NCBI GenBank assembly: GCA_049999805.1
Contig: JBNGIO010006316.1
Span: 117,221-149,557, forward strand
Origin: Folioceros fuciformis
Taxonomy: Eukaryota
Direction: 5' to 3'
Length of the DNA: 32,337 bases
Made by a program: the position numbers and the translations under genes. The first letter of the stretch is position 1. Every line of letters starts with the position of its first letter. Positions 1 to 26,617 of the stretch are shown piece by piece. The notes under the pieces were generated by a model. It worked only from the letters and a program-made list of their open reading frames with translations, ran no database searches and was not told where the DNA came from.

Positions 1-2
1 CT

Positions 3-3000
3 CCTCCGCCTCTCCCTACTTCCCTGCTTCGGGACGAGGCCGCCTCCCTCGCTTCTTCTTCTTCTTCCTCCTCCTCTTCCTCCGCCATCGCCAGCAGCAG
101 CTCCTCCAACGAATCCAGGCGGAAGCGGCAGCGCACGTCCGGGGAGCTGGAGGAGGAGGAGGATTTTTCCGAGATCGCCACCTTCCCGGCTCGGACCGAT
201 CCTCTCGGCCTGCACTCCGCGCTGCATGATAAGGTCGGGGTTTCGGGACCGGGAGCCCCACCGCAGGACCGCCTGGTGATCATCAAAGGCCGCCTGGCTC
301 TCAAGGTCGGATCCAGGAGGTCGCTCATGCACAAGATGCAGGCCCGGGACCGGGACGGCTTTCAGGACAATGCTATTGCTGCGCCTCTGGCTGCTGCTCA
401 GGAGCAATGTGCCGTACCGCTGCTCGCTGCTACTCCTTCTGCTCCCAACGCAACGTCCCCTGTCTTCTCCTCCTCGCCTCCGGAGGTTGTTGCTGCTGCT
501 ACAGCCACTGCTGCTGCAACGGTTTCCACGGACAGCCCTATTTCCGCCTGCTCCAGCTCCACTGCTGCCGTTGCATCCGGGAGCGGGACCTGGATTTCGG
601 CGTTTGCCAAGCCCCCTGCTGGTGCCGCACCAATTGACAACGGGCTGCAACTGGCCCAAACGCCGCACTCTGCAACTGCTGCTGCTTCTTCTTCCACGCA
701 CCTATCCCTCTTTGCAGATGGCGACCTTGTGCCAGCTCTTGCTGGCCCCGTGTGTCTGGGACCAGGCAATGGCGGTATTTTGCCACTGCACCCGCCTCTC
801 TTCACCTCCTCCAGGGTTCCTGACGACAGGCCCAGGCTGCCTGTGTGCCGCTGCCAAGGAAACTCACATTCTGATTCCAAATTTCCTTCTTCCCACTCGA
901 CCTTAGCGGTCAGCTGTCCGGCACCGGCCAAGGGTCTTTGTCCCTCTACACATGTGCAGTCGGACGACATGGATCTTGGGTCACACAGGGTTGGAGGGGC
1001 AGGTTTGGGTGTGCAAGCACAGGCAGGTTATGGTTTTACCATTACAGCTGGGCGAAGTGATGACGGCGGAGACCAAAATAGCCCAGGCTCTGCAGGCATG
1101 CATCATGCCGATGATGACGATGAGGAGTTGCTTCATGCCGTCCAAGGACATGGCCAGCACCCTCGATTAGCCGAGGCGAAGAAGGAGGAGCTCGGCAGCA
1201 AAGGTAAAAGCAGTTTTCATGGAGTCGGCTTATCTGATCAAGCAGTTGCTCCAGCTGCTCCGCTCTGTGTGGTGAACAGGGAGGATGAGGAGGAGGAGGA
1301 GCTGTCCGCCGCGGCTGAGCTTGACAATATCGCTGAACCGTCCTTGGTGAGCAAGAAAGCAAAGAACCGGAAGCAGGGTGACAGAGACCAAGAGCAGAGG
1401 AGAGAGCCAAGCTCGTCCGCAGGCAGAAATAGCTCTCCGTCAGAAGACAGGCAACGAGATGGGATAGATGCTTTCTCATTGGCAAAGTCGGTTGGCCTAT
1501 CTGATGTTGTAGCTGCTGGCTGCAATGCTCTTGACAAGTTAGCAGCCTCTGCATTGAGAGGTAAAGCTACTAGAACAGGTGGTAAGATGGCAGCTGTCAC
1601 GGGGGTGGCAGGTGGGAAAAAGGGCAAGGCATTATCTGCCGAGGTCTATGTTGCACTCACGGAGGCTTTCGTGGACATGATTCAGGTTCTCAAAGAGCAT
1701 GTTACCCTACTGACCTGGTGTTTGGACTGCCTTGGGAGCATCTTGCCGCCCAGCAGCAGCGATCGCTCTTCCTCCGCAGGGGAGGCCTCCAGTTCAGTAG
1801 CTGGTAACATTGGACCCTTCATACCTTCTGGAAAAGATACTCCTAAGGGAAGTTTTGCAAAGGCAGGGAAGCCTGATAGTGCATGTGGAGCCACTAAGCT
1901 CCAAGGGACTCAGAATGGCCCTCAGTTGGGCATTGCAACTGATCAATCGGTTGCGGCAGACCAGGACCACAGCTCCTCCAAAGCTGCATTGAAATCTGCA
2001 CGGATTGGCAGTTATGCTGCGGCAGCTGTAAGTGCAGGCACTGGCAAAAATGGTGGCTTATCATCATCTTTTTGCAATGGATTCGCCTCTGAGTCTGCAG
2101 CGAGCTCAATTTCTGCCCTTGCTGCAGTTGCATATGCTGCAACGGTACCTATGCTGGCGGAGAAGGCTGTTAAAGCTGTGCTGCATGCAATGCAAGCATG
2201 TGACATTGAGGCACATTCTACCCAGGCTGGTAAGCAGGTGTATGTGAAGTTGTGAAGGTCATGCATGCAGAGCAGGGAGGAGCCATGTCTCCATGATGCT
2301 GTATCAATCAGGCTGCACTGTCACCTGCTTGCTTTCGCGTCACTGCTATTTTCGTAACCATGATAATTTCAAACATAAATATGCTGTAAATATGCCTTTG
2401 TCTTTCACTCTGCTTGCTTCTGATCTAGCCTCGTTTTTTTCTCATGCTTCTCCAGCTCTTCGAGCCCTCTCTGCTCACCTCTCTTCAACGAACTCAAAAT
2501 ATGTCTGTGACGATGCATTCGCATTCATCATAGCTGCAATGCGTGAGTTTGTAAGTGATGCTGAGATGCAGGCAGAAAGCTGCATGGCTCTTGGCTCTCT
2601 CACAAGGGCAGTCAGTGCTGCCACAGGCCATGCAGCTTGGGCTGCCATCACAATTTCCATGGATCATCATCGAACTAACCTTATGGTTCAGGTAAATACG
2701 TTTGCTTGGGACAACGTCTAGGCACTTCGGTGCATCATCCTTTTCCCCTCTAATCTACTGAAATTGTCTCGAAATCAGTTTTCGTTTTTGGAATCCTGGT
2801 TTCTTGGAGGTCAGGGCTTTTGTTGATTGGTACCTCTTGAGTTTGCACTCTTTCTGTGCATGGACTGAGGGTGTGAGACCTGTGGATTTGCAGAGGGCTG
2901 GCTGTGGTGCTTTACAAGTGCTTTGCACCCGCACTGGTCTTGGTGTGCCAGAGTGGGGAACAGGCAAGCGTCCTCTTCGAGCATCAAGGGATGCTGACAG

Positions 3001-6000
3001 AGAGGCTGGCGTTCGAGCGCTTTATTCTGCAATGACAGCCTTTCCTGAGGATGTAAGAATACAATGGCATGGTTGCAGCACGCTTTGGACTTTAGTGCAT
3101 AGTGCAGGTATCAAGAGTGTCACCAATATGGTGAGAAATGGAGCAGTTGCTGCAGTGATTGGAGCAATGTCTGTCTGCCGGATGAATGAGATGATTCAGC
3201 AGGAAGGTTGCAATGTCCTTGGTACGATGGCTAGGACATTGGCAGAGAATGGGCACGAAGTGGGACCTCTTATACTGCCGATTGTTGCTGGAGACGACCT
3301 GAACAGGTCAGCTGGTTTCTGTGCTGAGGGGTCTGTTAACATCTCCAAGACGTCAGTGGGAAGTAGCAAGAAGTTGGCTTCCAGTAGCACCCGCAGTGAC
3401 AGAAAAAGTGGGGCCCCTACAACTCCAGATGAATGGTGGGCGGCTCTGTGGGCAGTTGTTACTGCCATGAAAACGTTCAGCAAATCAAAATCTCTTCAGA
3501 GTAATGGCACGTTCGCCCTTGGATGTATATTGAAGGGCTCTGGTGAAACTTTTCAGTCAGGCATGTCAGCCTCTGGAATGTCCCCCTCACCAGGTATGCC
3601 CCTCAGTAACAGCAAACCTGCCGAGGTCCAGAGCGAGCAGTCTTCTAGAACCAGGCTTTTGTCAGCAGAGCCTCAAATTACTGGAGTCGGTTCTGGACTG
3701 CAAGGAATGATCGCTGGTCAGTTAGTGCCAAACACGTTCCCTGGTAAGGATGTGGTGGATGATGTGGAGAGAATGAATGCTGCGGTTGAGGTTACAATGG
3801 CAGCCATGCGTGAGTTCCAGAAAGTGGAAACTGTCCAGGTGTGGGGATGTGCTGTCCTTCAACAAGCTTTTCTTGCTTATGTGCACTATGCAAAGAGACT
3901 GACACCAGTTTCAATGGGGCTTGAAGCCAGCTTATCTGCAGCTATGGCTGCTTCAGCGGTTTCGCCTTCCGTCCCTTCAAGCTCTGGCTCATCAGCGTCT
4001 CCAGCTTCACCCGGGGGCACTGCAGGTGATCCAACGTTTTCTGGAGAATGTGATGTGTCCTTTGTCGAACCCAGATCATCTTCGTATTCCAACCATTGCA
4101 GCTCTCAAGGAGGGAGCCATTCGTCTATGCTGCCTTCAATCTCACTCCCTGATTCAACAACAGATATTACTGGAGACGAGATGTCTTTAGGCCATTCATG
4201 CTTGAGCTTGTTGGATGCTTGTTTGTCCCAAGCTTCCAGTCCCGGTAGAGGCCCAGCTGCAACGTCAGAGACACCAGCTCCATGCAAGAAGGCAGAGGTC
4301 TTAGGCTCTCCACCCTCATCTTTGGCAACCAGTGTGGTTCCTTCGCCCTCAGATGCGCTTGCGAATCTCATCCTTTCCCAAGCAACTTCAGCAATGTGTA
4401 TGATCTCAGGAACCATGGCTCTTTCATACAACAACGGCACAACCGCAAATCAGGCTCAGTCAAAAGGCGTGACTGGTCTGCAAAAGAATGTTTCAAAGCC
4501 TCCAATGAACAAACCTATGTGCACAAGATCCCAAAACTCTAATCATTCTTTTGCTTCAGTCAGACAGAGCTGGTGTGCAGCACTGGGTGCCATTGGGGAT
4601 GTATTCGGGCACCTAACCAGGAACTCGGAAGGTGCAATTGGGAAATTTCTGTCGACGGGAACAGATTTTCTTGAATCCTTCCAATCCACCAATCCTTCTT
4701 ATCACCGTGGCCTTGCAGACATATCATGGGAAAGTCTGCTCTGGAGCCAACGTAGGCATATGTTTGAAAGAGATGAGTTGCAGTCCTTCAGTGAAGAAGA
4801 TAAGGGTGCTACTCTTGAAGCGTTGTCCTTTTGGACTCAATCTTTGGCTGTATCTAGCACGCGGCATTCTGCATCTGACGAACAGTCCTGTCTGGACAAG
4901 TTACTGCAGCAGTACAAATGCAGGGAGAAGGAGCTGACAAATGATGCCACACTCGCTTCTGAACTGTGGAACCTAGGAGACCAGAGTGAGCACAAAGACG
5001 TCGACAAAGATGCTATTGCCTTGAGTTCAGTGTCACAGCAACAGGCTGTTCGAGATATGAAGGCCTGGCAAGAGGCCACAGAATCAATGGCTAAGATAGC
5101 AGAAAGAGTGGGGTTTCCAATGTCTGTGAAAAATGCAATCCTTGCCATTAGGACGGTTCTTTACAAGTTGGATGATGCAGAGACTGTTATCTGGGCATGC
5201 CATGCTCTTGTAAGTCTATACCTGACTTGGGAAAATGTGCACTTATTCAAACCTGGATCTGAGTGTGATCGTGAAGAGTACAAGTCAAGAGTGTGGCCTG
5301 GAATTGAGAGTGATCGTGAAGAGTACAAGTCAAAAGCTTGGTAGGTAACAATTTCAATTTGCTTGTTTGAGCTCTTGGGATGTTGGTCGTGTAAGTAGTC
5401 CATCGTTAGCAGGGAAAGTATGCATGAAGTGTTCTTGTTGGTCTCAAGGTTTTTCTTGTGTGCAGGGGTGAAGGTGAAGCGGGAGTTTCCCAGCTGGTTG
5501 ACCTCGTGGTTCATTGGACGAACCAAAGTAGGCCAGATGTGACATGTCTGGCACTGCAAGCCCTCTACAGCGCTTGTGTGTTTGCTGCAACTGTCCGCGA
5601 GATTGAAGAAGTGTTCTGCTTGGGTGGATGCGGTGCCAGGGCAATCCTTGGGTCCATGCAGAAGTCACTGACCTCTGGGGGCAGTGCCCTCCAGAGGAGG
5701 AAAGTTGTTCAGCAGGCTTGTTGTGTCTTGACGACAGTGTGTTGCTACAGTATGCAGGCTCAGCTGGCCATTGCAGCAGCAGGAGGAGCGGACATTATTC
5801 TTGCTGCTCTAGATCGCTATGACGAGGACAATCAAGTACAAATTGACGGTCTACACGCTCTTGGGCTGGATTCACGACTGCAACCAGAATTTGATGCCCT
5901 TTGGAACGCTGCCATTTACAGGAACACTCCAGGAGTTACAGGTCGCTGCAGTCGGAGGAGGAAATCAGGTTCAGCAACTGGATCAATGGTGGTGGGCCTA

Positions 6001-9000
6001 ACACATATTTACAGAGAGGGAATAAGGGTTCCAGAAGCTAATGGTGCTGAACCTGGTCGAGAATCTTCGTGCAATCCAGGAAACCAGGATTCTTGGACTT
6101 CTGATTTGGAAAAGCTTGTACTAGATGGTGGTGCTCAGTTGGGCCTCTTCCGCACTGGGCTGATTGCAAGCCCTGGATGTGGTGGCCCACCGTTTGCAAT
6201 TGAGCTACTTAGACGGCTCCTTAGGGACTCCTGCCATAAAGAATCGGCAATGGAAATGCAGGCCCAAGTCTGCCTTCTTATTGGTCACATGGCCGGACAT
6301 GATGCTATCTGGCGGAAGGAATTTACTAATGTAGGTGCAATATGTGCAGTTCTGATTGTCTTGGAACGTGCCAGTGGCTGGAGGCAACAGGACCTTACAA
6401 CATTTGGTCTTGTCCTTGAGGGTGTAGAGACAGAGATACAATGTACCGCTCTATTTACATCTCCTGCCTATCTGGACTGTCACGAAAAGGCTTCGACTGC
6501 AATCCCAGACTCTTGCCCTTGTGGGAAGAGCTGCTCGGGCTGTCCCATAGGGGATAGTGGTGCTTCCGTGCCAGCTAGAGCAGGTTATGTGATTGATAGT
6601 AATGGAGCTCCTTTATCGGATGAAGGGTTGAAGGCACGCTTGCAATATGCTGGATGTTGTGCTCTTGCTGGACTAGTTAAGGAGGGATTCTCATGTAGTT
6701 CTGCTATACTGCCCTTTATTGTAAAGGTAAGTTGTCTGCCTTCATCTACGGTTGCACTTGAGCTATACGATGTACTGTTTCTGATGTGGGAAAAAAAACC
6801 GAAAAATGGTATTGACGTGTGTCACTTGATGAACCAGGCTCTGGCAGTTTCTCTGTTCAAATTGGAGAGCCTTGCATCCCTTCATCTTCAGGATGAGAGA
6901 AAGGATAAAGCACGGCCTGAAGTCTGCTCGCCTGCTAGAGTAGCCCTTGGAAGACTCGGTGTTTTCAGGTGTGTATCAACTTAAACTAAGGTTTCTCTTC
7001 TGTTCTTGTTTGGCCGTATGTATGTCAGGAAGGAGTTGACATCACAATCGTCTGAACGTGGGCTGTTCAGGATTGGGAGTCATGAGGATGGCAAGTCTTT
7101 GCCACGTCTTGCTGCAGAGGCAGGGGATACGTTATGCCTGGAGGCACTTGCCAGCAGAGGGGTGGATTTGCAGAAGACTGACCAAAATGGTCGCACTGCG
7201 TTTTGGTATGCGGAAAGAGCAGACCAAGTGAAAGCGGTTCAGTTCTTAAAAGACCAGGCCCAACTTCAAGTGAGGAGGAGAGCTCGTGAAAAAGCCAAGG
7301 CAAAGGGGGCCCGGAAGGTCAAAGCAGTCATTGCTGTCTCTCCTCCCGTCGAGATTCAGATGTCTACATGTGAGAAAGCAGGTGCAGGAGAGGGGCATGC
7401 TGGTAAGTTGCACACTCCTCTACAATTGGAAGCGTTGAGGAATCCAGAGATGGAAGGTTGGACGAATGAGATGGATCCAGACAACCAGTCATCTTATGCT
7501 GGTGACAGCAAGGAATGTGCAAGCGTAATGCCAGAGCAGGGTGAGAAGACACCCATTTTGCAAGCAAATGTGGACGATGTTCCAGATCATGCGACACGTT
7601 TTACTTTGGAGTTGGATACACATGCCACAGTTGATGAAGCAGAAAATTCAGGGGAGTCTTTGGATACAGAGAAAAAAGAGACCCTCACTGTGGAATCAGA
7701 ACCAGCAGAAACTGTCACAGTTCAGGAGCCCATTGTTGTAAGCGCACCTGAGGCTGGAAAGGATCACGTGCCCAGCCCCAGCTCCTGTGATGACGTCTCC
7801 ACTGCCGGATGCCAAACTCTGCCCGATTCACATAGACTGAAGGAGCAAGAGAACACATTGAATGATGCACTTCGTGAGTCGATGTCTTCTGGCGATGTTG
7901 ATAAGATGCAATCTGCTCTTCAAGCTTGTTCCTATGTGGGATGTAGGGTAGATGAGCGTCTCGTGAAGAGAGTCAAAGCCGCTCTGGCGAAGAGGCTGAA
8001 GCGGATTGAGAAGGGTGCTCTACTCCAGGAAGAGCTTCTCGTTGCTATGGCGGATGGTGAAAGCGTCCGTCTAAGTGCCGCTATAGCAGCTCTTGAAGCT
8101 GTGCCGAGGTTTGCAAACATCTTCCAGGGAGAGCTTGCTACAGCTCGAAGTTTGCTGAGTAGCAAAGATGATGAAATTGAACATGTTAAGGTGAATGCAT
8201 CCTCAGAATGCAGCAGCAGACTCTCAGACCAGCTTGAAATCCATGTTGGGGAGAACGAGGCAGAAAAGGGACCTTCAGGTCGGTTGTTCCTGGAGGAAGC
8301 TGAGAACGTTGTTAGGGTGGAGGGGATTATTGACCAGGTTTCTGACCCCGATTTAATGGATCAAACCAGTTGGACAAATGTCTCTAAAGGAAAACGGCGG
8401 AAGGAGAAAGACACTTGTGATCCTGGACGCAGTGCTTCCAGTCAAATACAGCCTAGGGGTAGAAGGGAGAAGAGCAGCAGGCTGAGGCGACAGAAAGGAA
8501 CAGCTCAACGGCAACAAGCGTCAGGTGGAGATACTACTCAAATCGGATCTGGGCGCAGCAGGGGGTTTAGATGCGCAGATGTGCATGATTATCATGTCTC
8601 TGGAGAGGGCCGAGCATCTCCGTTCTCAGGACCTCCAGAGATGCCCCCTTTACTTCCGACCCCCTTAAGATGCCGCTCCTCGGTTTTACCAGTTGGACCA
8701 TCTTCTCGGTCAGTTATCATGCCTCCCCGATCTGCAGGAAGGGGTGTGCCTTCCCCCACATCTCATGATCCAATAACTCCTCAGCTGTTTCCAGAATCTC
8801 GCCTGCCATATAGCTGTGACTCACCTGTACCTGTTAGCATAGACGGTGATTTTGGTGCTGAGGTTGAACCTCCGGACTCAGGCCTTCTTCCTTTGTCCCT
8901 ACTTTATGCATCCTCCTGGGCCTCTCCAAAGCTGTCAAATTACAGGAACGGATTTATGAAGGACGAGCAATCATGGGATTTGCAAGGTCAGGATGGAAGC

Positions 9001-9699
9001 CCTTCGTTGGATAGTGTTGGACCCTTTGCACCTGCTCTGGCTTCATTCCTGTCATCTGACACTCTGGTGTCATCATCCTCAACCCTCTTCAGTGCATCTC
9101 TGGGCGAATTCCCAACCTCATCAATTCTTGCTGAGGTACCTTCGTCCAAAAACACTTTCCTTGCTGAAGCATTGGTGCCTCCAGCTCCAACACCTATGCT
9201 GAATGTCCACGCCCAACCTTTTCTGCCTGCAAGCACCACTCAGCGGAGTTTTCCGTCTGTGGATAACCATCAATCTGATGCTGGCGACAGTGTGTCCGGC
9301 GCTGAATCAATAATGGCAACTGACGCTTCTTTGCAACAGCTTCTATCCGATTGTGTGGGCCAGTTCCCGACGGCTTTCTTGGAACCGGGGTTTTTCTCTG
9401 ACAGCAAGCACTGTGATGTCTATGAAGCTGTTCCTTTTGAAATGGACCCAGATTATTGTGGGGTGATGCCTTCCCTTTATGAACCAAGCTTTGAAGACAA
9501 ATCACCTGCCGAAGAAGCATTGATAGCAGCTTCCTTAGAGGAATCGTGTTGTATCTGCTTTGACTTGCCGAAAGATGCTGCCCTGATTCCATGTGGGCAC
9601 CGAATGTGCAAGGGCTGTGCTGAGGAGATGCATCGAATCCGGCATCAGTGTCCAATATGCAATCGCACCATAGATGCAGTGCTTGCCCTCTATGGGTGA
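3..9699 (+). CDS. Giant ARM-repeat + ankyrin + RING (C3HC4, IAP/MEX3-like) protein, putative E3 ubiquitin ligase; 5' end lies outside the window; >=2990 aa
   Basis: The frame is open from base 3 (PPPLPTSLL...RRKRQR...). Phase-consistent exons: <3-2229, 2456-2691, 2894-5340, 5466-6726, 6838-6968, 7029-9699, all introns GT-AG. Recurrent motif [VI]xxAMxxFxxxxx[VIM]QxxGCxAL (e.g. AAMREFVSDAEMQAESCMALGSL, SAMTAFPEDVRIQWHGCSTLWTL, AAMREFQKVETVQVWGCAVL). Ankyrin pair GKSLPRLAAEAGDTLCLEALASRGVDLQKTDQNGRTAFWYA at about 7085-7255. Terminal RING CCICFDLPKDAALIPCGHRMCKGCAEEMHRIRHQCPICNRTI. Confidence 0.85.
5252..5341 (+). repeat. In-frame 45-nt tandem duplication inside the coding exon (PGSECDREEYKSRVW / PGIESDREEYKSKAW)
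   Basis: Two copies of cctgga...gtgatcgtgaagagtacaagtcaa directly before the 5341 splice donor. Confidence 0.9.
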
Positions 9700-10753
9700 G
9701 ATTGGTCTCCTTGGCCCTTTGGTGCGCACGTTTGTTACCAAAGAGCATGTGCTAGCATGCTGTCGTTATAAGAGGTTAGGAGTTCCAGGTAAAGCAGATA
9801 TTTCTGTTGTCAATTCTACATTCATCAGCAGTGTTGTGATAGAAGATAGGCGACCTATGATTGAGCATGATCTGAAGAACTGAAGGCTGTGTGTGTCAGG
9901 GAGACGAGTGACTTATGGGCTCATGACTGTGCTCCTTTTATGGGGACCTGGATGTGCAGTAATGAGTCGCTTCGTGTGTAACGCTCATGTCTGAATTTGG
10001 TGGCTGCGTGTGTTTGGCAGCTGGGGCGTCTCGAGACAGGCACGGTAGTCGGCATCCTAGATAGGGTGCTTTAATGTCACCTTGTGGAGGCAGCTTGTTG
10101 TGGCTACACATGGGTTTTCCCTGTACGTGAGTCCCATGTCCTTTTCAAGCTGTCGGGTGACCGGTCGCATACAGTTTCTATCTAGGCTAGCTCTCTCTCA
10201 CGTTGCATCTCCTCATCCCTGCCTTTTCCACACTACTGATTAAACTGCCTGCTTTGATGCCTGTGATGTCACAGATGACGTGTATGTTGTTGGGGATTAA
10301 AGCAAGTGTGTCCTGTACGTGTGGTCGGGGCTTTTGATGGAGGTAAGTGATGAATCAGTCTGACGTGACCAACTGCTGGGATTGTTGTTGCCGCTGCATT
10401 TGCTTGTGCCGAAGCCATTCGTCCATGCTGAAGGGCTCCCCTGCATTTTTGGGTCTAACAATCTGTCGTCTGTTGTAACTGCAGTGAACAAGGATTCCGG
10501 AAAGGTAGCACCGCCCCAAATTTTGTTTGTTGGAGTTGAGCACGACGCTTTAGTTTCGAAGCTGTAGACCGTTGTCCCTCTTGTAACGTAACCACGGGCT
10601 GGATATGGGCTCTAGCAGTTCACTCCACAGTCTGAGACGTGGAATTTTTTTTTCTCATTGTACTTCACCATTTTTTGTTCTGGCCGTGTTCGGATTCTTG
10701 AACACCTACCGTTCCTGTGCCCCAAGGGAAAGCTTAATCGGGTAACGTCCAAC

Positions 10754-11036
10754 TAATTGTTTTTGGAAGAATGTGAGAAATTGTTGTTGGAAGAATGTGA
10801 GTAATTGTTTTTTGAAGAACGAGAGTAATTGTTTTTTGAAGAGCGTGAGTAATTGTTTTTTTTGAAGAACGTGAGTAATTGTTTTTGGAAGAATGTGAGT
10901 AATTGTTTTTTGAAGAACGTGAGTAATTGTTTTTTGAAGAACGTGAGTAATTATTTTTTGAAGAACGTGAGTAATTGCTTTTGGAAGAACGTGAGTAATT
11001 GTTTTTGGAAGAACGTGAGTAATTGTTTTTGAAGAA
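10754..11036. repeat. 24-nt minisatellite (consensus TAATTGTTTTT[G/T]GAAGAA[C/T]GTGAG), about 11.5 copies
   Basis: Direct head-to-tail copies visible; they produce the KTITHVLQ repeat in the minus-strand ORF. Confidence 0.95.
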
Positions 11037-11465
11037 GGGAAGCTCAGGGAGAAAGTGGGTGACAAGGTTTGGGTGAATTAAAGCACTTTGCAGGACCTTA
11101 AGGATTACCTAAACTTTGGATTTCCTTGTTCCCAAAGTTAAGGCCTAAGTATGGAGGTCCTTTTGTATTTTTGAAGCACATTGGGAATGTGAATGTGACT
11201 TACAAATTACAATTGTCTAATTGGATCTTATCTCATGATGTGTTTTATGTCTCTTTGTTGAAATTGATTATGATTTTGAAAGAGAATGAAGACATGAACA
11301 TGGAAAGACTATGTCATTCGAAAGAGAATGAAGACATGAACATGGAAAGACTATGTCATCCTAATTCAATATAACCATAGTCTGTAGAAGATAGTTGAAT
11401 TCCTAGCAGAAAGAGAAGTGCCTTCTATCCGTGGTAATGTTCTAGAGTATCTAGTAAAGCTTTGT
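11037..11465 (+). mobile_element. Degenerate Ty3/gypsy (chromovirus) integrase C-terminal fragment: GPY/F module and start of chromodomain
   Basis: KVGDKVWVN ... FPKLRPKYGGPF...IGNVNVTYKLQL....SHDVFYVSLLK, then KIVEFLAEREVPSIRGNVLEYLVKL (chromodomain VExIL...EYLVKW-like). Stops and frameshifts present. Confidence 0.85.
11278..11359 (+). repeat. 42-nt tandem duplication (KENEDMNMERLCH x2) within the gypsy fragment
   Basis: gaaagagaatgaagacatgaacatggaaagactatgtcat occurs twice in tandem. Confidence 0.9.
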
Positions 11466-11521
11466 GAACGTGAGTAATTATTTTTGGAAGAATGTGAGCA
11501 ATTGTTTTTGGAAGAACGTGA
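11466..11521. repeat. Second block (about 2.3 copies) of the same 24-nt minisatellite
   Basis: gaacgtgagtaattatttttggaagaatgtgagcaattgtttttggaagaacgtga matches the 10754-11036 unit. Confidence 0.9.
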
Positions 11522-13930: not shown

Positions 13931-14451
13931 TACTACTAAGACAAGCAGCTGGCGCCGAGGCAAAAGAATGGAGAGAAGTTGTGGACAGTGAGTATAACTC
14001 CCTCATTGCCAACAAAACATGGATTATTACTCCTCTACCTCCTAGAAGGAAGTGCATCTATTGAAGTGGACTTTCAAGATCAAGTGGAAGTCTAACAACA
14101 GCATAGAGCGCTACAAGGCAAGGCTGGTGGGGAAAAGGTATTCGTAGATTCCAGGTGTGGATTACATAGATACCTTCTCTTATGTTGCAAAGATAGCCTC
14201 TATCCGAGCACTCCTTGCTGGCGCTGCTGCTTTGGATATGGAGATACATCATATGGATGTCCAAACTGCTTTTCTAAATGGAGATCGGAACGAAGAGATC
14301 TACATGGAGCAACCCGAAGGATACATGGTACTTGGATGTGAGGACGAGGTATGTAAGCTACAAACGGCCATTTACGATCTTAAGCAATCTGCTCTTACAT
14401 GGTATTGTAAACTTGATGATCATTTACAGTCTAGAGGTTTCAGGAAGATCA

Positions 14452-15497
14452 ATGCTGATTGGAATATTTATCTGAAGCGAGTGGGAGCTTCTATCGTCAT
14501 CATTGCCGTATGCTGATTGGAATATTTACGTGAAGTGAGTAAGATCTTCTGTCGTCATCATTGCCATATGCTAATTGGAATATTTATGTGAAGCGAGTGG
14601 GAGCTTCTATCGTCATCATTCCCGTATACCGATTGGAATATTTACTTGAAGCGAGTGGGAGCTTCTGTCGTCATCATTCCCGTATGCTAATTGGGATATT
14701 TACTTGAAGCGAGTGGGAGCTTCTATCATCATCATTGCCATATGCTCATTGGAATATTTACTTGAAGTGAGTGGGAGCTTTTGTCGACATCATTCCCTTA
14801 TGCTGATTGGAATATTTACTTGAAGCGAGTGGGAGCTTCTGTCGACATCATTGCTGTATGCTAATTGGAATATTTACTTGAAGCGAGTGGGAGCTTCTGT
14901 CATCATCATTGAGGTATGCTGATTGGAATATTTACGTGAAGCGAGTAGGAGCTTTTGTCGTCATCATTGCCCTATGCTAATTGGATTACTTACGTTGCTG
15001 TATGCTGATTAGATTACTTATGTGAAGCAAGTGGGAGCTTCTGTCGTCATCATTGTCGTATGCTGATTGGAATATTTACGTGAAGGGAGTGCGAGCTTCT
15101 GTCGTCATCATTGCCGCATGCTGATTGAAATATTTACGTAAAGTGAGTAGGAGCTTCTGTCGTCATCATTGCCGTATGGTATGCTGATTGGAATATTTAC
15201 TTAAAGCGAGTGGGAATTTCTGTCGTCATCATTGCTGTATGTGATTGGAATATTTACGTAAAGCGAGTGGGAGTTTCTGTCGTCATCATTGCCGTATGCT
15301 GATTGGAATATTTACGTAAAGNNNNNNNNNNTTCTGTCGTCATCATTGCCGTATGCTGATTGGAATATTTACGTAAAGGAGTGAGAGCTTATGTCGTCAT
15401 CATTGCCGTATGATTGGAATATTTACGTAAAGCAGTGAGAGCTTCTCGTCAATGATCATATTTACGTAAAGCACTGAGAGCTTCTCGTCATCATTGA
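14452..15497 (+). repeat. 58-nt tandem array (ATGCTGATTGGAATATTTAC[T/G]TGAAGCGAGTGGGAGCTTCTGTCGTCATCATTGCCGT), about 17 units plus fragments, derived from copia RT coding sequence
   Basis: Units start at 14452, 14510, 14568, 14626 and onward (period 58). Unit 1 is in frame with the RT (ADWNIYLKRVGASIVIIAV). Confidence 0.97.
15322..15331. other. Assembly gap (10 N) inside the 58-nt array
   Basis: Run of N characters. Confidence 1.
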
Positions 15498-16073
15498 TGT
15501 AATCATCGTTAACAATGATCGTCATCATTAACGTATATGTGGATGATTTAATCATCGTTAACAATGATCAAGAACTTCTGACTTTAGCAAAGGGAGACGT
15601 TAGTGAAAGGCCTACACTACTTAATGAGGAAACCTGCTTTACTAGTTAATTCAACAGTCATGTTTGTTACACCTCAGAATTGAACCCCGTTGTGGAGGGG
15701 AAGCAGATTCCAGGAATCAGGGTTGCCGGCAAACGGTCCCGGTACCATCGTCCGGCAACGGACACGGTCGCTAGTCCACTGTGCCGTGTGGCGGCCGTTG
15801 GGGTTGGGCTGGAGACGCAGGAGATGAGGAAGTATCTACATCCGCGGAAGCTTGATTCGCATCAGCAGTTTCATTTGGCGGCAGCTGGCGCGCGGTGCAT
15901 CCAGTGAACCCTGGTGTTCAGCCCGGGCCACCTAGGCGGGCACGAGAGTGGATGGACGGGAAGGAAGACTGCTTGATCATGAGATGACCACTCCACACCT
16001 GTGGTCTACTCCACTCCACCCCACTCCACTCTCCTCTGCTCTCCACTCCACTCGACTCACAGGGCGGAGCGTT

Positions 16074-17752
16074 ATGACGGTAGCGCCGACGCTTACGCCG
16101 CCCTTGGGGCTAGATGCTACCACGGTCGACGAAGACAGCCTCCTGAAGCGGGTGCTAGACTCGTTTAAGGGCCTGCGACCGGGGGCCGATCTTACATCTC
16201 TCCGAATTCCTGCGCAGTTCAACCTTCCGAAATCGCAGCTACAGTTGTACGGAGAGTCCGTGTACTGCTCCGCTCACGACCTGTTGGCCCAGTGCGCGCA
16301 GGCCCCCACGGCTTTGGATCGCTTTCTAGCCGTTGTTCGATGGCACGTTTCCACCATCAGGCCTCCGGTTTTCCTCAGAGCTCCTTACAATCCTGTGCTG
16401 GGGGAAACGCACCACGTCACCGTTGGTGATCTCAATGTCCTGCTGGAGCAGGTGCTTATGGCTCTTCGGATCCTCAACCTTGAAGTGGCGCTGATAGTAT
16501 AGGATGGGATAGGATGTGTTGCAGCAGCCTGATCATCATCATGATGCAGCTTGTCAATGATGCATTTTGGTGACCAGGCTGGGAAGAGTTGAATCATGCC
16601 GTCATGCTCACCCTGACCCGTTTTCGTGCCCAATCCACGACTGGCAACAGGTGTCTCACCATCCGCCTGTCACCGCCCTGCACGCCACCAATGAGGAGCG
16701 GGGAATCGAGCTTTCGTGGTGGCAGCGACCGGACCCTCGCTTTTATGGTCAACACTCTAGATCCATGCCGCCTTGTAACTTGCATTGCCTGAGGAAGTTT
16801 TTTGGCGATGGCCGTGCAGGCCAAGCATCAAATTTAATTCTCATGTGCCTGGACGTGCCAAATGTAGGAAGCAACATGGAGGTATCGATAGTGGGACCCC
16901 GACTCTTGGTGTTGCGGCGGAAGCAAGAAGAGTACGAATCACGTGCTCCCAATCTTAGCTTTCGCTTCTTTCCCCGCCCGGGCGCGGAATGGGTTGGCCA
17001 AATCACTGTCTCCTGCGCGCAGTCCGGGTTCGAGGCCACCGTCAGCTGCCGATCCAGGAGCTTGTTCGGCCTGCTTGGAGCTTGCAATCGGGTGCAGGGC
17101 AAGGTCTGGGACACCCGCACTGGCCAGACTCTCTTCGACCTCAACGGCAATTGGGACAAGTATGCGTCACTCTCTCAGCTCGCTCGCCCTCACCTTCGGT
17201 CTCGCTCTCGCTTTCTTGCTCGTTGCGACCTGGCTTGCTGTTGTCAGCCCTCAACCACTTGCTTCAGTCCAGTGCTTCTCCTTTGCTGCTTAGCCTCGTA
17301 CGTCGTCGGGCGCAGGATTGTGTCCATAAAAGACAGGCGCACAGGGAAAGCCAGTGTTTTCTACGACGGTAGCAGAGCACTGTCGGGCTTGCCGACACCC
17401 GCTTTCGAGAACGACAAGGTGGCGTTTTTATTCACGTTATCAGGTTCCTTTGTCATGTGGAGACAGACGCTCATGCTGATTGCTGATGCTGCAGGAATTG
17501 CTTCACACGGAATCTGTGGTAGTCTGGGCCGCGCTTACTGACGCCATTTTGAAGCGGGATTGGGACAAGGCCAGAGAGGCGAAGAAAATCGTCGAAGAGC
17601 AGCAACGGCAGCGCCGGACGGAAAGTGAGGACTGGAGCCCTAAGTATTTTGTCAGGTCCCCAAAAGGAGACTGGAGATGGCGGCAGAATGGGCAGCCCGT
17701 TCCCCGGGCTCCCATCGTCGTTCCTCCTGCTCCTCGATCCAGAAAGCCTTGA
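16074..17752 (+). CDS. ORP4: Oxysterol-binding protein-related protein, short ORD-only ORP4-like, about 375 aa
   Basis: Exons 16074-16451, 16651-16747, 16868-17159, 17316-17418, 17495-17752. The OSBP signature EQ|VSHHPP is split by intron 1. Also PGADLTSLRIPAQFNLPKSQLQ, PYNPVLGETH, and ESVVVW...A.EAKK.VEEQQR...W.PKYF. An AG acceptor just upstream (about 16062) hints at a further 5' exon. Confidence 0.92.
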
Positions 17753-17870: not shown

Positions 17871-18584
17871 CTAGTACACCTGTGCATCAGCAGCGTCTGC
17901 CACAATAGGCAGCCTTGGGGTCTTGCCCAGAATGCAGGAGGAGACCCCGAAGAGAAAGCAGGCCACGAGGAAGAGGAAGACGGTGTTGTCCAGAATCACC
18001 AGGATCTGGAATCCGAGGCCCCCGGTGGGATGGAAGGTGCGCTCCACCACGGACGGCAGGATGAGCAGCACGTCCAGCACCACAGCTTGCATGCTGTTGA
18101 AGCGCACGTAGCGGCTGAAGCTGGGGTTCCTCACCACCGCCAGATACAGGGTGAAGAAGGCGATGAGGTTGGAGTAAGGGAAGCTGCTGTAGAGCTGCAA
18201 CAGCGGGAAAAGCGGCTGCAGCAGAAGCTGGGATTCCGGGAATTGTAGGAAGAGGAAGCGCCCGAACTGCACCCCGTCCAGGAGCGGCAGCAGGTATCCA
18301 GACGCTGCCACCAGCCGTTCCACAGCCGCCACGGACCCATCTCGCCCTGCCTGCCTCCTGCTCTTGCTCCTGCTCACCACCTGGCGGCAGCCCAAGCCCA
18401 AACCCAAGCCCGATTCCAAGTCCAAGCGGGATCCCGGATACTTCCACCCTCGAGCCCCGCAACTGCTAAGACTGCTGCGCAGCGTCCTAGCCGCACGTAA
18501 GCCCGCGGACCCCTGCTCTCGGCCCGCTACTCGGATTCCGCCGCCCGGTACTGGCACAAGCAGCGCGGGGAGAAGCAGTGCCAT
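17871..18584 (-). CDS. TIC20: Chloroplast protein import channel TIC20, group 2 (TIC20-V/II-like), intronless, 237 aa, with a transit-peptide-like N-terminus
   Basis: ERLVAASGYLLPLLDGVQFGRFL...FFTLYLAVVRNPSFSRYVRFNSMQAVVLDVLL...TPRLPIVADAADAQV. First ATG at 18584; Arg/Ser/Ala-rich N-terminus. Confidence 0.93.
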   Translation of the reverse strand: MALLLPALLVPVPGGGIRVAGREQGSAGLRAARTLRSSLSSCGARGWKYPGSRLDLESGLGLGLGCRQVVSRSKSRRQAGRDGSVAAVERLVAASGYLLPLLDGVQFGRFLFLQFPESQLLLQPLFPLLQLYSSFPYSNLIAFFTLYLAVVRNPSFSRYVRFNSMQAVVLDVLLILPSVVERTFHPTGGLGFQILVILDNTVFLFLVACFLFGVSSCILGKTPRLPIVADAADAQVY

Positions 18585-18740
18585 TGCCCGCGCCTTCTGC
18601 ACCTCCGCTCACACCGTGAGCCTCGCTCTCGCTCTTTCCGTGTCCGTCTGGCCTTTTCGACCACAGGCTCCGGAGTGAGGAAACAAAACTATTTCTTTTT
18701 GGTTCTGCTACCACGCCAAGCTGCCGACGTCTGAAATTCC
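18585..18740. promoter_or_regulatory. Putative bidirectional promoter (156 bp between the divergent TIC20 and PAHX start codons)
   Basis: Head-to-head ATGs at 18584 (-) and 18741 (+). Inferred from geometry only. Confidence 0.55.
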
Positions 18741-20287
<1,547 letters not shown>

Positions 20288-20532
20288 TAGACTGGAATGA
20301 GGCTATAGCTTGTGGGTACATTTCCCATCAATGGGAAGTTGAGCAGTTTTTCATTCTCAATTTGTATAAACGTGGACAGCGAGAATGAGGACTCCCATTC
20401 GCCATCTGTCGGCTGTTGAATCATAACTGGTGATGCAGAAAGTAAATTGTGAACTCCATGATTCAAGAAATATGTGCTCCGGCTGCAAGCCTACTTCCGC
20501 AGACCTGCGATGTATTCCAGACTCCTCTCTGA

Positions 20533-21870
20533 CTAGGAAAGACTGAGGCCCAGATCATCGCCATTGTCTGATAAATCCTCCTCATCTGAAGAAACTTCTA
20601 CGTAACTGCAACCAAGAACGTGGAAGCAAGAAGATAACTCAGGCTGTCGGCACTTCACCACCGAGAAAAGGAGTAGAGAAGGCAACGGTCCATACCTGAG
20701 CTTTCGGCCGGCTGTCCGGGCCGACAACCTTAAGGGGGTAGACTTTGAGGGGTCGTCCTCCGCATCCTTGTTGGTATCTTCATCCAAAGGCTGCTGCTTA
20801 GGCGGGGAAAACTTCACATCACCCGGTTCGTCGTCACCCGCAATTGGTCCGCTGGTATTAACAACAGAAGCTCCGTCTGTCACGGCGGGTGTTGCTTCTC
20901 CTTTTCCTGCTGATTGACGCTGCTCCGAGCTCTGCTCCTCATGCGCAGAAGAACAGCTATGACGGAGGCGAGGCAGTCACAGTTACGCCCAGGGAGCCAC
21001 AAGAAGCATCACAAGATACCTTGTTCAAACTTGACGGCATCTCAAGCTGCTCCTCGTCCGGGTTTTCATCCTTGGTTCCGATCCACCAAGCTGTGGAAAA
21101 GACAACCTACAAATTGAAATCTCAATGGCACAGGCGCTGGAGAAGAAACAAGACACCCGTAATGCACAAACCAGTAGCTCTTCTCACCAAACTGTCAAAA
21201 CAGTCCTCACAAAGGATGTTGCCTGCTCCCCGCTGGAAATGCAGAGTGAGATACTTGTTCTTCGGGTACACGATGGTTCCAAAAAATTTCAAGCGTCCCT
21301 GCAGGACTCAACCAACCAGTCGACCGATTTACATGGCCGTTCAAGTAGTAATACTCCAGAAGAGCAATGCAAGACCCAGCAGAGCTGCAACCTGAGGGAA
21401 GTTCATGTAAAGAACAGGATTTTTGGAATCCAATTGCGCCAGCTCTCCGAATCGACCGCTCCCTACAGGTGTCACCAGCCCTGGAAAGGCGAACAAGAAC
21501 TTGGTTTTCCGATGTCCCCGTTTCACGATGTCTTTGCCATCGCACTTAGCCAGAGCTGCACGCAACACAGCCACGATGTGTCAGGAGCAAAACACAAAGG
21601 CAATTGTCTGAGACGAGGGCCAAAGGAGACACACTCTTGGCTGGCTGCAGGAAGGAGGCAGGCTGCGCAGGCGTATCCGCCACAGGCTTGTAGCTGAGAG
21701 CCATGCTAGCTGACCTTCCTTCCCGAGGCGACCTGGTTCCCCGCGCTGTTTTGCACAGTACAGTATCGGAACACATGTCTTAAGAGAGAAGATGCATGTC
21801 TCCAGTACTGTAGGTTGCTAGAGAGATGATTGATACCGGAAGTAAGGTGGGCCTGCCTTCGTTCGTCCAT
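20533..21870 (-). CDS. RHL1: DNA-binding protein RHL1 (ROOT HAIRLESS1, topoisomerase VI accessory subunit), about 271 aa; start codon uncertain
   Basis: Minus-strand exons 21870-21837 (tentative), 21745-21635, 21555-21392, 21298-21188, 21106-21020, 20931-20696, 20605-20533. Motifs KCDGKDIVKRGHRKTKFLFAFPGL...LDSKNPVLYMNFPQGRLKFFGTIVYPKNKYLTL...VVFSTAWWIGTKDENPDE...RLSARTAGRKLSY. Confidence 0.9.
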
Positions 21871-22018
21871 TTGCGCCTCCTTTTTTTGTGTTGGGCTCTG
21901 GGCTCCGATGACGTGAAGGCGAGGAGTAGATATTAGCATCTCAAACACTCAATGCAGCTTGGGATAGATCATTCCGAGTCCGCTCTGCTGCGCTTTGCCA
22001 CTCCAGTTTCACGCTCGG

Positions 22019-25000
22019 ATGGCCAGGAGCGGCCCTTCATTTGCCCGCGCCCGACAATCGCTGCCAACTGCTGCGTGCAGAATTAGATCCTGGTGCAACC
22101 GCTGGTTGTCGCTTTCCACGAATGTGCACTCCACAGCCACCTTCGTGCACGATGAAAGCCTCAGCTGTGCCATCGTCCTGTGGCCCGTGGTCGCCAACTT
22201 ATACAAGCTGGAGGTTTTGTTCCCCGTCGCAGGGCCAGGTCAGGCAGACTTGGCAGACGAGGCTGCTCCGCTATCGTGCTTCTCTGTTGACAGATGGTTC
22301 CTGTGCCGCCGGGGTTTCCTTCTGTCTGTTGCCAAAGCCAGTATAGACCTGCAATCTGAGGATCTTCTATTTGGTCTCGAGTTGGATGACAATGCAAGTA
22401 AGGAGACATGCTGCTGCATGAGTGTCTCAATGGAATGGTGTTTCCTGAGCTTTGCAGGTTTCTGTTCCACGTTTGACTTCAAGGAACGTGGCTTGACACA
22501 ATTATGCAACAGTTGCTGTCACTCTTATCCTTCGCTCAATCCTATTCCTCTGTGCTTCTGGATGAAGGGGTGAGATTTAGGGCACATGGTCATGGCTACC
22601 TCACTACTGATGACAAAGGTCGCTTTTGGAGTGGCACGAAGACGGCAAGAAAATGGGAGTCCTTCAGTTTGCACGAGGAGGCTATGGAAGGGCCTTCGTC
22701 AGACAGCAACCTGTACGTCCTTAACCTGCTTCCAAGACCCCTACCTTCTTGCCTTCAATTCTAGTTGAGCATTTTTGTGTCGGTCTGAACATTTCTCTTT
22801 TCACAGCATGGCGGTGCGAGGTCCTGTTCGGGTAACTCTCAAGGCACACAATGGGAAATATTTGTGTGCTTGCATGCCTGTTGTCAGTGCTCGTGCTGAG
22901 GTATGCCAGTCGCAAGCATGTCATAGCCTTGTCGCATCATTTGCGTCTGTAACTCTGTGGTTCACGTTTCTGCACGTTATTCAGGCCTGAGAGTGCCTCA
23001 AACTGTTTACAGAGCTGCGTTCATGGAACCTCTCTCATCTATTGCTGACGGTGGATCGTTCCTAATGTGTGCAGGCCCCTTGCTGCTGTGAGGAACTCCT
23101 TCTTGATTTGGTATTTCCACCGCTTGTGCCCTCCAGGCAGCATGATGCAAGAAAGACTGCCTTGGATACGAACCAAGATGTGTTCCGACCAGCCAGGGAC
23201 AATATGAAGGAGAACGGGCAGGAAACCAGGAATAGAGGCTGTGATAATAATCATTTGTCGCACCCTACTTTTTGCACTATCAGAACTGCAGATGGCTCCC
23301 GAGTGGTGAGTATTTTCACATCTGCATGATACTTATGCCTCCTGCCACTAGCAAGTGGAACTCTAACCTCCAGCTTGCCCTGTCGCTATCTCACGGATGA
23401 CCTTGTTCTGTGTTTCAGCTGAGCGCCGAACCAGATGGGGTGGTTTGTACAGAACGTCTAGATCAAGTTCGTGGGTTGGAAATGTTCACTCTGCAGTTGG
23501 AGCATTGTGAAAGAGTTCCTAAAGTCAGCATTCATCCTTTTCAAAGGGGAGGGCAAATACCTAGGGAGCTCCCAAGGTATATATCAATCGAGCCCTCTGG
23601 TACAGTGCTATGCAATGGCCTGCATTCAAAGAAGTCAGAGCACTTTTATCTGGAGCTGGCAAATGGGTCAAGAGTTTTAATCAAAAGTGTAATGGGAGGC
23701 TGCCTGGCAGCGGACCCCGAGGCAACTGAAGAAGACACCACTTCTCCTGTGAATGGGAGGGGTCCCACTTCAGATGACAGTGCGCCCAAGCGAAAGCTGT
23801 GTTCCTGTGTTATTCGTACTAGGAAAGAGGTGGAAAATGTTGGGGCTTGGCAGTTAAGATATCATGGAGACTCGCTGTATACATTACTAGCTGTACCTTC
23901 ACCAAAGGATGGAGCTGATGTCTACATGTTTGCAGACTCAACTGGCCGTATTTTGCAGGTCAAGCACTTTCCATTGTCTTGTGGTTTTCCTTGTTTCATT
24001 CTAGGGGAGTCCTACGGTTGTTCTGGAAGTGTTTGCATCCCCTGATTTTGTTATTAGCTGATAGCATGGTTCACCACTGCCCCTGCATTGTGCAGTCGAA
24101 TGAACCAGCTGTGCACTTTCCCGCCTTGACTTCTTTGTTTGAGATCAAACCTGTATCAAGCTCTGTATTGAAGCGAGCAGCTTGTGCCTTTCATGAAGGC
24201 AGTGTTTTGGATAGGAGCATTGCTGGTTTCACTATTCAAACTGTACGGAAAATCAGTGGTAAAAGGTCAGATAGCTATGTTGCTTGAGTATTTGTTTTAA
24301 ACGTTCACTGGGCTCTGGTATACGAGGTAGAACCGACCTGAGTGGTCGAGCGAGGTGGTAATGTGGTGTGTCTTTGACAGGCGTTTTCTAAGTGTGGAGC
24401 CCTGTGGAAGCGTGCGGGCAGTCCGCACTGTCCCTACTCGATGGGAAGTGTTCCATTTGATTGATGTGGATGCTGCAGCCGCAACAGCTGCCCCACATAA
24501 TTTTGTCTGTCTGGCGGCTGCTAGCCGCTGTGAGCCAGCTGTGAGTCACGCTTCCGGTTCCAGACGCCAACTGGGCAGCACATTAGGCATGCAGATGTTG
24601 CGTGCGCCAGGATTTAGAGGCAGGCAAAGTATTGATCCTACATCAGCAGGACCTCCACGCACTGCAGCTGAAAGCATACAGAGGTACATGAGTTTTCCGT
24701 CTACCCTTTTTGGTACGGTCCTCCAGGGTGATTGTTTCTCAAGGCATGCCAATTCTTTCTGATGGTCATCTTTGGTGTGTCATGAAGGGCTGCTGGGGTA
24801 ACTCTGCATTCTTTGGAGCTTGGACAAGCAGTTCCACACAGGACACCTGCCTCCCTGCAAGACCTCTGTTCTTCCTACGTGTGCTGGAATGCATCCGAAG
24901 GTGCTGCAGTCTTCACGTGTCTCAGTTGATGCTTCCCTGGGATTTCAGATGACTGTCTCCTGTTTCATTGTCCTGCGTGAGGTGTGGGTCTGGTTGTCGC

Positions 25001-25352
25001 AGTAGGTTAGGGTCTTGGTTTTGCATATTAGATTTTGGCGTGCTGAGTCCACTTCCCAATCTCTGTGACACCGAAGTATAATGTTTAAAATTGGTTAACT
25101 GTAGCTGTAAGGTTGGGTACGTCGCATCACGTTCAAATCAAAATGGTCAAACAGGGTGGTCTCATCAAAATGAGAGATTCTGAAGCCCAGGGGGGAGCAA
25201 ATAGTGAGTTCATGGAGTTGGTGGGTGTATTGAGTTCATTGGCAAAGCCTGGGAGCACGTTTTCAAGCAGTGGCATTCACAGTCTGATAGCATACAGCAG
25301 CCTGACGCTACCAGATGATTTGCTTTGCAAAGTGTTCTCTTTATGGCGGTAA
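22019..25352 (+). CDS. Uncharacterised fascin/actin-crosslinking-like beta-trefoil repeat protein with C-terminal BC/SOCS-box-like motif, about 740 aa (may extend to about 25905 via another intron)
   Basis: Phase-consistent exons 22019-22397, 22568-22712, 22807-22900, 23075-23305, 23419-23958, 24096-24265, 24381-24683, 24788-24900, 25105-25352. Repeats VRFRAHGHGYLTTDDKGRF...KWESFSL, VTLKAHNGKYLCA, RYISIEPSGTVLCN...SEHFYLE, RFLSVEPCGSVRAVRTVPTRWEVFHL. PASLQDLCSSYV at 24846 and LPDDLLCKVF at 25308. Confidence 0.72.
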
Positions 25353-26203
25353 GGATGACTACCATGGCCTGTTGCAAGGATGAAGACCACGATGCCCAGA
25401 GATAACTTGGAGACGTATCTGTGCATGACTTTGTCGCAGATCAAGGCAGCATCCGCAACACTCATGCAAGTGGTGGCCCAGTACGTTTGTTCCCTTCTCA
25501 TACAACACCGGTGGAGCACAGGGCCGTCCCTTACCCAACAATGGGCGTGTTTTCGCGCATGCAGGACTGCAACACGCCCAACGGTTGAATGCGCTGGACA
25601 GATCTTTGTGGGCAGGCACAACAGAAGGTTGGCACTGCAGCTCCTGTGACAGCGGTGGAGTGCTCAACATGGATCCGTCTGTAAATCCAGGTAATTCTGC
25701 TTTTTCTGCACGAGGCGAGGCCCCTTTGTCGGTCCTGCTTCTCTTTGCCGAAACTTCAGACAGCGCCCAGCTGTTAAACCAGGGTGGTCTCCGTGTGTGC
25801 GACATGCAGCCCATCACAGATACTTGGAGGTGCAATACCATGCGTTCAGCGGGGCACACCAGCCATCGGGTGTACTTTGGAACGCCATCTCCTTCATTGG
25901 TATAAGGTCAGTGTTGGTACAAGGGCAGGTTGATGTAGTCTGGCTTGAGGAGATGAAAAGCCTGCGACTCATCTGCAGGATGTTGCTCTTGCTGTTGCTG
26001 TTTCCCCTGCAGCATTATGACCACAGCCTTCTTCTTCCAAGCCAAAGCCAGCGCTGGACGTCGGAGCGGAAGGCCTTGACAGACATGCTTGCCGTGTAAT
26101 TATCATTAGGTCCAGGTCCGTCCATTAATTGATTGATGAATTGGAATTAAAGTAGTCTAGTGTGTTTTAGCTCATTATTGGTTTGTGGAGGGAGCCTCAT
26201 CAA

Positions 26204-26365: not shown

Positions 26366-26617
26366 CCAAGCCTCTTTGGTTTTCGTAAGTGGCGACGAAT
26401 TTAAGAAGGGAGACGTGAGTGAAGGGGTGCCTGGCGGCAGGAGACGACTCCTTTAATGGTGTGAAACTCCTCTGTCTACAGCTCCTAATCTGAGCGAATT
26501 ACAGTAACGTGGAAGTCGCAGCGGGCGGGAGATGTTCAGCATGCGCTTTTTGTCATTCCCTTCAATTCTTGGGACCTCACTGCCAGCTGCGGCTGCTTGG
26601 CGTTTCTGTGGAGAACA

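Follow-up and report, generated by a model that had tools for sequence, protein, structure and literature searches.

A giant ARM-ANK-RING protein of Folioceros fuciformis belongs to an ancient land-plant family of E3-like proteins

PUB (U-box/ARM) and ARABIDILLO/aardvark (F-box-ARM) proteins act in ubiquitin ligases, where their ARM repeats bind the substrate; the ARABIDILLO/aardvark F-box precedes these repeats. Makorins are small and bind RNA via CCCH fingers. Many active RINGs carry an arginine after the last cysteine. LRR and kinase domains mark LRRK2 and the Roco proteins, which are defined by a Roc-COR tandem (PMC6337361). PAM2 is a motif of 12 residues with a hydrophobic residue at position 3, a polar one at 4, P or V at 5, A at 7, F at 10 and P at 12 (PMC2854688). 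MKRN1 is described as a RING E3 that binds PABP (10.1101/516005) and is listed among the MLLE partners (PMC4574140). The latter surveys plant MLLE partners, and neither 'RING' nor 'armadillo' occurs in its main text.

The window analysed here is a stretch of 32,337 nucleotides of Folioceros fuciformis. In keeping with a hornwort, the genome gave an LCIB match above the cut-off; among land plant genomes, PMC8075897 reports LCIB from hornworts only. Positions 3–9699 of its plus strand hold long open frames interrupted by short, A+T-richer introns. Six exons and five GT-AG introns, joined at phase-compatible sites, give one open frame (Table 1). The joints were checked by comparing window positions 1–10400 with contigs of four public runs (of 22 listed), which come from four studies and carry four organism labels (A–D); all four were labelled RNA by guess only, and none is on record as RNA. 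A single contig of 10,076 nt (run X1, record 1) was identical to window positions 97–9788, with no differing letters, and skipped exactly the five introns. It ran from the ARM region through the RING, and the same held for one contig each of X2 and X14. The contigs of X2, X5 and X14 were ~8% divergent from the window and had the same five joints. Among the 40 listed of the 1037 substitutions in the divergent contigs, 25 were at third positions and 26 were synonymous.

The first-pass annotation had joined the six exons into one chain of at least 2990 aa. The exons and the single chain were confirmed at all five joints, and the length had to be corrected. The contigs of all four runs spliced intron 5 at 7070 and not at the AG at 7027–7028, so acceptor 7028 was rejected and the chain within the window is 2976 aa (vs 2990 with 7028). 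That two or more adjacent genes were fused by prediction, or that the frame arose by chance, has a negligible probability. A contig across two genes would not by itself establish one transcript, but the joints are in frame and common to four organisms, and each orthologue of Marchantia, Selaginella and Adiantum (see below) is annotated as one chain from ARM to RING. As had been claimed, this is one real gene. Two ARM pieces used as queries each matched only their own locus in the same genome, and thus no paralogues were found.

The gene is 5'-incomplete, since a run of 5000 N immediately precedes window position 1. The X1 contig extends 1150 letters past window position 97. A 91-codon frame beginning MPTRS sits just ahead of the 5000-N run. 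The motif RKRQRT lies at aa 257–327 in orthologues beginning MPKR vs aa 39 in the window. Hence, about 220–290 N-terminal residues are presumably missing upstream, and the full length would be ~3200–3300 aa. A conserved N-terminal helical block, present in nine of ten orthologues, was not visible in the window sequence.

Table 1. Features of the gene and its product (window coordinates; aa positions refer to the chain within the window)
Feature	Position	Strand	Details
Exon 1	3..2229	+	5'-incomplete; long Ser/Ala/Pro-rich region
Basic NLS-like motif RRKRQR(T)	117..134	+	aa 39-44
Exon 1, conserved helical block	about 1485-1770	+	
Exon 1, start of best-conserved ARM block	from about 2100	+	
Intron 1	2230..2455	+	GT-AG, 226 nt, phase 1
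Exon 2	2456..2691	+	two ARM repeats, aa 765-832, the first clear motif units; second continues into exon 3
Intron 2	2692..2893	+	GT-AG, 202 nt, phase 0
Exon 3	2894..5340	+	ARM helices split by low-confidence, poorly conserved inserts
Exon 3, ARM helices	about 2984-3277, 3419-3547, 3740-3913, 4337-4441, 4538-4630, 5003-5263	+	pLDDT mostly 70-96
Intron 3	5341..5465	+	GT-AG, 125 nt, phase 2
Exon 4	5466..6726	+	more ARM-like repeats (first 150 residues confident), conserved PGCGG motif, then insert
Intron 4	6727..6837	+	GT-AG, 111 nt, phase 0
Exon 5	6838..6968	+	conserved connector from ARM array to ankyrin repeats
Intron 5	6969..7070	+	GT-AG, 102 nt, phase 2
Exon 6, coding part to stop codon	7071..9699	+	
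Two ankyrin repeats	7096..7260	+	Ank_2 E 7e-6, 26.9 bits, just below 27.3 cut-off
Basic segment downstream of ankyrin repeats	7273..7323	+	
Conserved two-unit helical region	7858..8157	+	nothing above the Pfam cut-off
Conserved short motifs in disorder	8644..8793	+	PPLLPTP, SVIxPP, PITPQLFP
PAM2-type motif	9193..9228	+	aa 2809-2820; L3, N4, V5, A7, F10, P12
C-terminal C3HC4 RING (zf-C3HC4_3)	9538..9678	+	all eight zinc ligands; Pfam E 7e-12
3' UTR	9789..10275	+	joints resembling UTR introns at about 9789-10021 and 10123-10275 (contigs)

Searching with residues 1–340 of exon 3 identified ten orthologues among 2436 candidates of 1428–4075 aa. They come from Marchantia polymorpha (MPTK1_4g05100, 3412 aa), M. 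paleacea (Mapa_005600), Selaginella moellendorffii (SELMODRAFT_420896) and two Adiantum species (GOP47_0016854 and L7F22_007059), with five further sequences. The orthologues were 2049–3412 aa long and 34–50% identical to the window protein; for the named ones, identity was 37–50% overall, reaching 83% within the ARM core. Identity peaked at 70–83% at aa 700–900 and fell to near 10% in the inserts. Across the ten orthologues, conservation was restricted to the helical blocks, the short motifs and the RING. The Marchantia, Selaginella and Adiantum proteins have the same domain order as the window protein along the entire length. Their descriptions say only 'hypothetical' or 'RING-type domain-containing'.

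When exon 3 was compared with 1.84 billion representatives, 142 matches were obtained. The six below 1e-30 all belonged to the orthologue family, and four short fragments were members as well. P0013, used as a query, recovered only itself, and a metagenome scan gave 85 pattern matches with no relatives among them. No orthologue named as angiosperm, moss or alga was found among the 2436 candidates or among the 1.84 billion representatives, the latter carrying no names. An angiosperm-wide family would be expected to give many strong named clusters; hence, absence from angiosperms is likely, as judged from these searches. The earlier statement that the protein matches no named angiosperm gene thus held in these searches, and no full-length angiosperm orthologue of known function appeared.

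Three of the orthologues (P0008, P0009 and P0011) formed a long-branched, AT-rich clade. Their GARP/FYMINK ratio was 0.89–0.97 vs 1.27–1.98 in the other members, which hints at an AT-rich genome. A placement of this clade with Marchantia was not rejected (p-AU 0.077), and a placement with the ferns was supported only at 57/21. The clade may be gymnosperm or moss; its composition, together with its absence from NCBI, makes us lean towards a conifer as a guess. If it is a conifer, the family would not be restricted to non-seed lineages, as had been suggested earlier.

No description of this ARM-ANK-RING family was found in the open-access literature, and searching it with the Marchantia and Selaginella gene identifiers gave nothing. 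This is an undescribed, ancient land-plant family of E3-like proteins, whose parts are known and whose arrangement was not found in the open-access literature. In the best explanation, it dates to the base of land plants.

Pfam scans of the window protein were run on single exons. The ARM_LRRK2 model matched exon 3 above the cut-off (E 2.4e-7). We also built a repeat-unit profile from 390 units of the [VI]xxAMxxF...QxxGCxAL type of unrelated proteins. It identified six units at ≥8 bits, all in aa 765–1144, and three weak ones more; on 200 shuffled sequences it never scored above 3 bits. Structure models backed additional, divergent helical repeats in both exon 3 and exon 4. The first-pass annotation had counted about 12 repeats of this type. 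That number did not stand, whereas a dozen or more helical repeats of any type are plausible from the models.

All models were made for single exons from 11–12 sequences, with a mean pLDDT of 56–59. The AlphaFold2 model of exon 3 (12 sequences, pTM 0.55) showed six confident helical blocks with inserts of about 30–150 residues between them. Its residues 37–778 superposed on the designed protein 4rzp_B, whose repeats are contiguous, at 238 of 242 positions (Z 18.2, rmsd 3.2). The ARM repeats of APC, Vac8 and importin-alpha were matched with Z 15–16. Overall, Z was 15–18 across 238–297 residues, as in a solenoid of the armadillo-repeat type. The exon 4 model showed ARM-like repeats, with Z reaching 16.8 across 140 residues. 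Foldseek searches with the exon 3 and exon 4 models yielded no match at E ≤ 0.001, and a PDB sequence search with the ARM piece gave no match at E up to 10. Searches of the ESM Atlas led to generic ARM clusters. In the models, the scattered ARM helices form one solenoid from which large disordered loops protrude. A solenoid whose repeats are split by hundreds of disordered residues would be an unusual scaffold design.

In the structural comparison of exon 3, an axonemal chain (9fqr_Xr, Z 18.5) shared the top rank with a designed protein, and flagellated sperm is common to all named carriers. The protein might accordingly belong to flagellated sperm or to the free-living gametophyte and have been lost with these in angiosperms. 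We consider this quite improbable, as axonemal ARM chains are frequent among generic matches and no named orthologue from a moss or ciliated alga was found in the searches. Moreover, the P0008 clade, if conifer, has no flagella.

The first-pass annotation had seen the layout of the LRRK2 N-terminus in this protein. As a true relative, it would bind Rab GTPases on membranes with its ARM and ankyrin repeats and ubiquitinate trafficking proteins with its RING. ARM_LRRK2 was the best ARM model in all ten orthologues, and the ankyrin repeats directly follow the ARM array. However, the match was short (profile positions 121–220 of 638) and lay where the profile is most generic. The same model matched at least 31 of 33 non-family proteins (among 36 proteins scanned from the exon 3 matches), where it often accompanied kinase, BTB, RCC1 or ART domains, and unrelated ARM proteins scored far higher. 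Nor was the fold closer than that of generic ARM proteins: LRRK2 came 50th in Foldseek (E 0.096), after designed ARM proteins, and was not among the best 50 rows of three other fold comparisons with the exon 3 and exon 4 models. The missing PDB match of the ARM piece and the mere two ankyrin repeats point the same way. Pfam gave no match to an F-box, U-box, LRR, Roc, COR or kinase domain, either in the six exons or in the ten orthologues, several of them complete. Specific LRRK2 homology was therefore rejected, and a kinship with the LRRK2 N-terminus is very improbable; what the two have in common appears to be a promiscuous repeat subtype of ARM, not a relationship of the whole proteins. A special link to aardvark, whose repeat style had also been compared earlier, was not supported; no F-box was found in the window or in the orthologues with complete N-termini.

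The remaining domain order of the earlier description (ARM, two ankyrin repeats, basic segment, helical region, terminal C3HC4 RING) agreed with Pfam, alignments and models. Ank_2 was found at E up to 0.1 in eight of ten orthologues. The look-alikes of the two-unit helical region in the ESM Atlas were protist clusters with low recognition. Between this region and the RING lies a stretch of about 460 residues that shows little conservation apart from short motifs.

The zf-C3HC4_3 model matched nine of ten orthologues, and the same number had all ligands; the tenth (P0007) ends before the RING. Eight zinc ligands in C3HC4 spacing, a feature of RING-HC E3 ligases, were present in the window and in these nine. 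Compared by sequence with the PDB, the RING matched RING domains, mostly from E3 ligases. All ten RINGs have asparagine after the last cysteine. The conserved terminal RING with intact ligands supports the earlier reading as an E3-like scaffold, and judged from sequence an E3 scaffold is probable. A candidate ubiquitin-binding motif just upstream of the RING was judged by eye and dropped, as its spacing departs from the consensus. In the same genome, there were ten other RING matches, 34–42% identical.

Two short motifs bear on the cellular role; both were absent from the first-pass annotation. The core RKRQRT was invariant in the window and all ten orthologues (11/11), and by consensus it reads as a putative nuclear import signal. 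The second motif fits every defining position of PAM2 and lies ~105 residues ahead of the RING. It was aligned in the same columns in the window, both Marchantia species and one fern-side protein (P0002, P0003 and P0004 aligned, the last being the fern-side protein), in flanks that are otherwise about 20% conserved among the four sequences. Among the named orthologues, only the Marchantia proteins have it. It was thus present in 4 of 11 sequences and missing in six of the nine orthologues with a C-terminus (Selaginella, Adiantum, P0006 and the P0008 clade). With this patchy occurrence, PAM2 cannot be the core function of the family. The pattern occurred in 16 of 10,000 shuffles, a figure that flatters because the pattern was chosen after the motif had been seen; the shared alignment position would be the stronger argument. 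A looser pattern was found in none of 136 other fetched proteins. Pfam reported no family for the 26-residue PAM2 piece, with weak matches filtered out. The same genome encodes a PABP-type MLLE domain. Provided that the protein is an E3 scaffold, a working PAM2 tether to PABP is slightly favoured.

A nuclear E3 or scaffold unconnected to RNA would have its ARM repeats and short motifs bind chromatin or transcription regulators, with PAM2 as a relic or a lineage-limited extra. The NLS-like motif in 11/11 sequences vs PAM2 in 4/11 speaks for it, and PPLLPTP and PITPQLFP are more widely retained than PAM2. However, a 10-residue PAM2 motif kept across the window genome, liverworts and a fern-side lineage amid diverged disorder would be hard to obtain without selection. 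We regard such a purely nuclear role as unlikely.

The best explanation overall is a single-copy, single-chain RING-HC E3 of ~3200–3300 aa, possibly tethered by PABP to mRNPs, with a probability of roughly 60%. The asparagine after the last RING cysteine and the patchy PAM2 were counted against it. The ARM-ANK solenoid would bind substrates or partners, with disordered inserts, the longest of about 150 residues, modelled as looping out of it. The C-terminal RING, at the tip of a long flexible arm, would recruit the E2. The invariant basic motif would permit nuclear import. In this genome, in Marchantia and in one fern-side lineage, PAM2, lying close to the RING, would bind the MLLE domain of PABP and so dock the ligase there. 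If so, its substrates would likely be proteins of mRNPs or of translation, by analogy with MKRN1.

More tentatively, and with considerable doubt, the first land plants may have had a giant single-chain E3 with a protist-type ARM solenoid and extreme disordered inserts that moved between the nucleus and poly(A) mRNPs; the PABP tether would later have been lost in several vascular lineages and the gene in flowering plants. If the PABP-tethered reading is true, the ligase would be specific to plants and serve quality control of mRNPs or translation, and PAM2-ARM-RING proteins would be a class outside the described plant PABP partners. Single-copy, conserved ligases of ~3000 residues are rare. Plant E3 catalogues are mostly based on angiosperms, which appear to lack this ligase. 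The single Marchantia orthologue makes genetics and interactome work directly feasible, and the PAM2 match offers a one-residue test of the mechanism.

With the LRRK2 N-terminus, the window protein shares the ARM subtype scored by Pfam as ARM_LRRK2, followed by ankyrin repeats. It differs in having no LRR, Roc, COR, kinase or WD40, in its two ankyrin repeats, in the huge solenoid inserts and in the terminal RING. Ankyrin repeats and a C3HC4 RING are shared with the XB3/XBAT ankyrin-RING E3s. However, RING_XB3-XBAT31 scored 18.4 bits on the window RING, below its cut-off of 50 for the XB3 type, ~760 residues separate the ankyrin repeats from the RING, an ARM solenoid of over 2000 residues stands in front, and there are only two ankyrin repeats. 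Unlike PUB and ARABIDILLO/aardvark, the protein has its E3 module in a C-terminal RING, with no U-box or F-box. The plant CID proteins, which carry PAM2, share this motif with it. Unlike the makorins, it has ARM and ankyrin repeats and no RNA-binding domain by Pfam; what it may share with MKRN1, by analogy, is the proposed working mode of a RING E3 recruited by PABP.

In the tree of protein relatives, P0013, a 277-aa fragment of the ARM-ANK-RING family encoded on a 1.1-kb contig, had a long branch on the fern side. It is a second divergent lineage or a paralogue within this family.

At the end of exon 3 of the ARM-ANK-RING gene (window 5260–5340), a segment of ~15 codons was doubled (DREEYKS twice). 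This segment was single-copy in orthologues outside the lineage of the window gene. Closer to the start of the exon, at ~3316–3320, a second contig in each of the public sequencing runs X1, X2 and X14 matched briefly and then departed from the stretch. The loose ends of the departing contigs were alike across the three runs, and the branching contig is perhaps an unrelated gene sharing a short word.

Downstream of the gene lay a repeat island (window 10754–11521, 11102–11371, 14148–14513 and 14452–15446), which contained a 24-bp and a 58-bp tandem array together with an SH3 fragment of Tf2 type and an RVT_2 fragment of copia type. The 58-bp array apparently arose by amplification of part of the element adjoining the RT.

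Beyond the island, the oxysterol-binding protein gene and the TIC20-like gene were arranged tail to tail, with their ends ~120 bases apart. For the four multi-exon genes found by eye (18900–25900), a Pfam scan of single-frame pieces gave no match; the first of them resembles a phytanoyl-CoA dioxygenase.

Features in the window and at other loci of the same genome (G000)
Feature	Location	Strand	Basis
Oxysterol-binding protein gene	15936–17750	+	Pfam match
TIC20-like gene, without introns	17874–18608	-	Pfam match
Multi-exon gene	18900–20300	+	By eye
Multi-exon gene	20500–21700	-	By eye
Multi-exon gene	22800–24900	+	By eye
Multi-exon gene	25300–25900	-	By eye
PGAP1-like gene	26494–32010	+	Pfam match
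Divergent PABP-like frame, without introns	L013:1462–3162, G000:C5800	-	
LCIB-family exons	L014, L015 (G000:C1919:3950–4891)		

Elsewhere in the genome, the PABP-like frame comprised multiple RRM-like units along with a degenerate MLLE, the poly(A)-binding protein domain proposed as a dock for the main protein; this frame is possibly a retrocopy. LCIB-family exons were also present, and among green plants, according to PMC8075897, LCIB is a marker of hornworts and algae.
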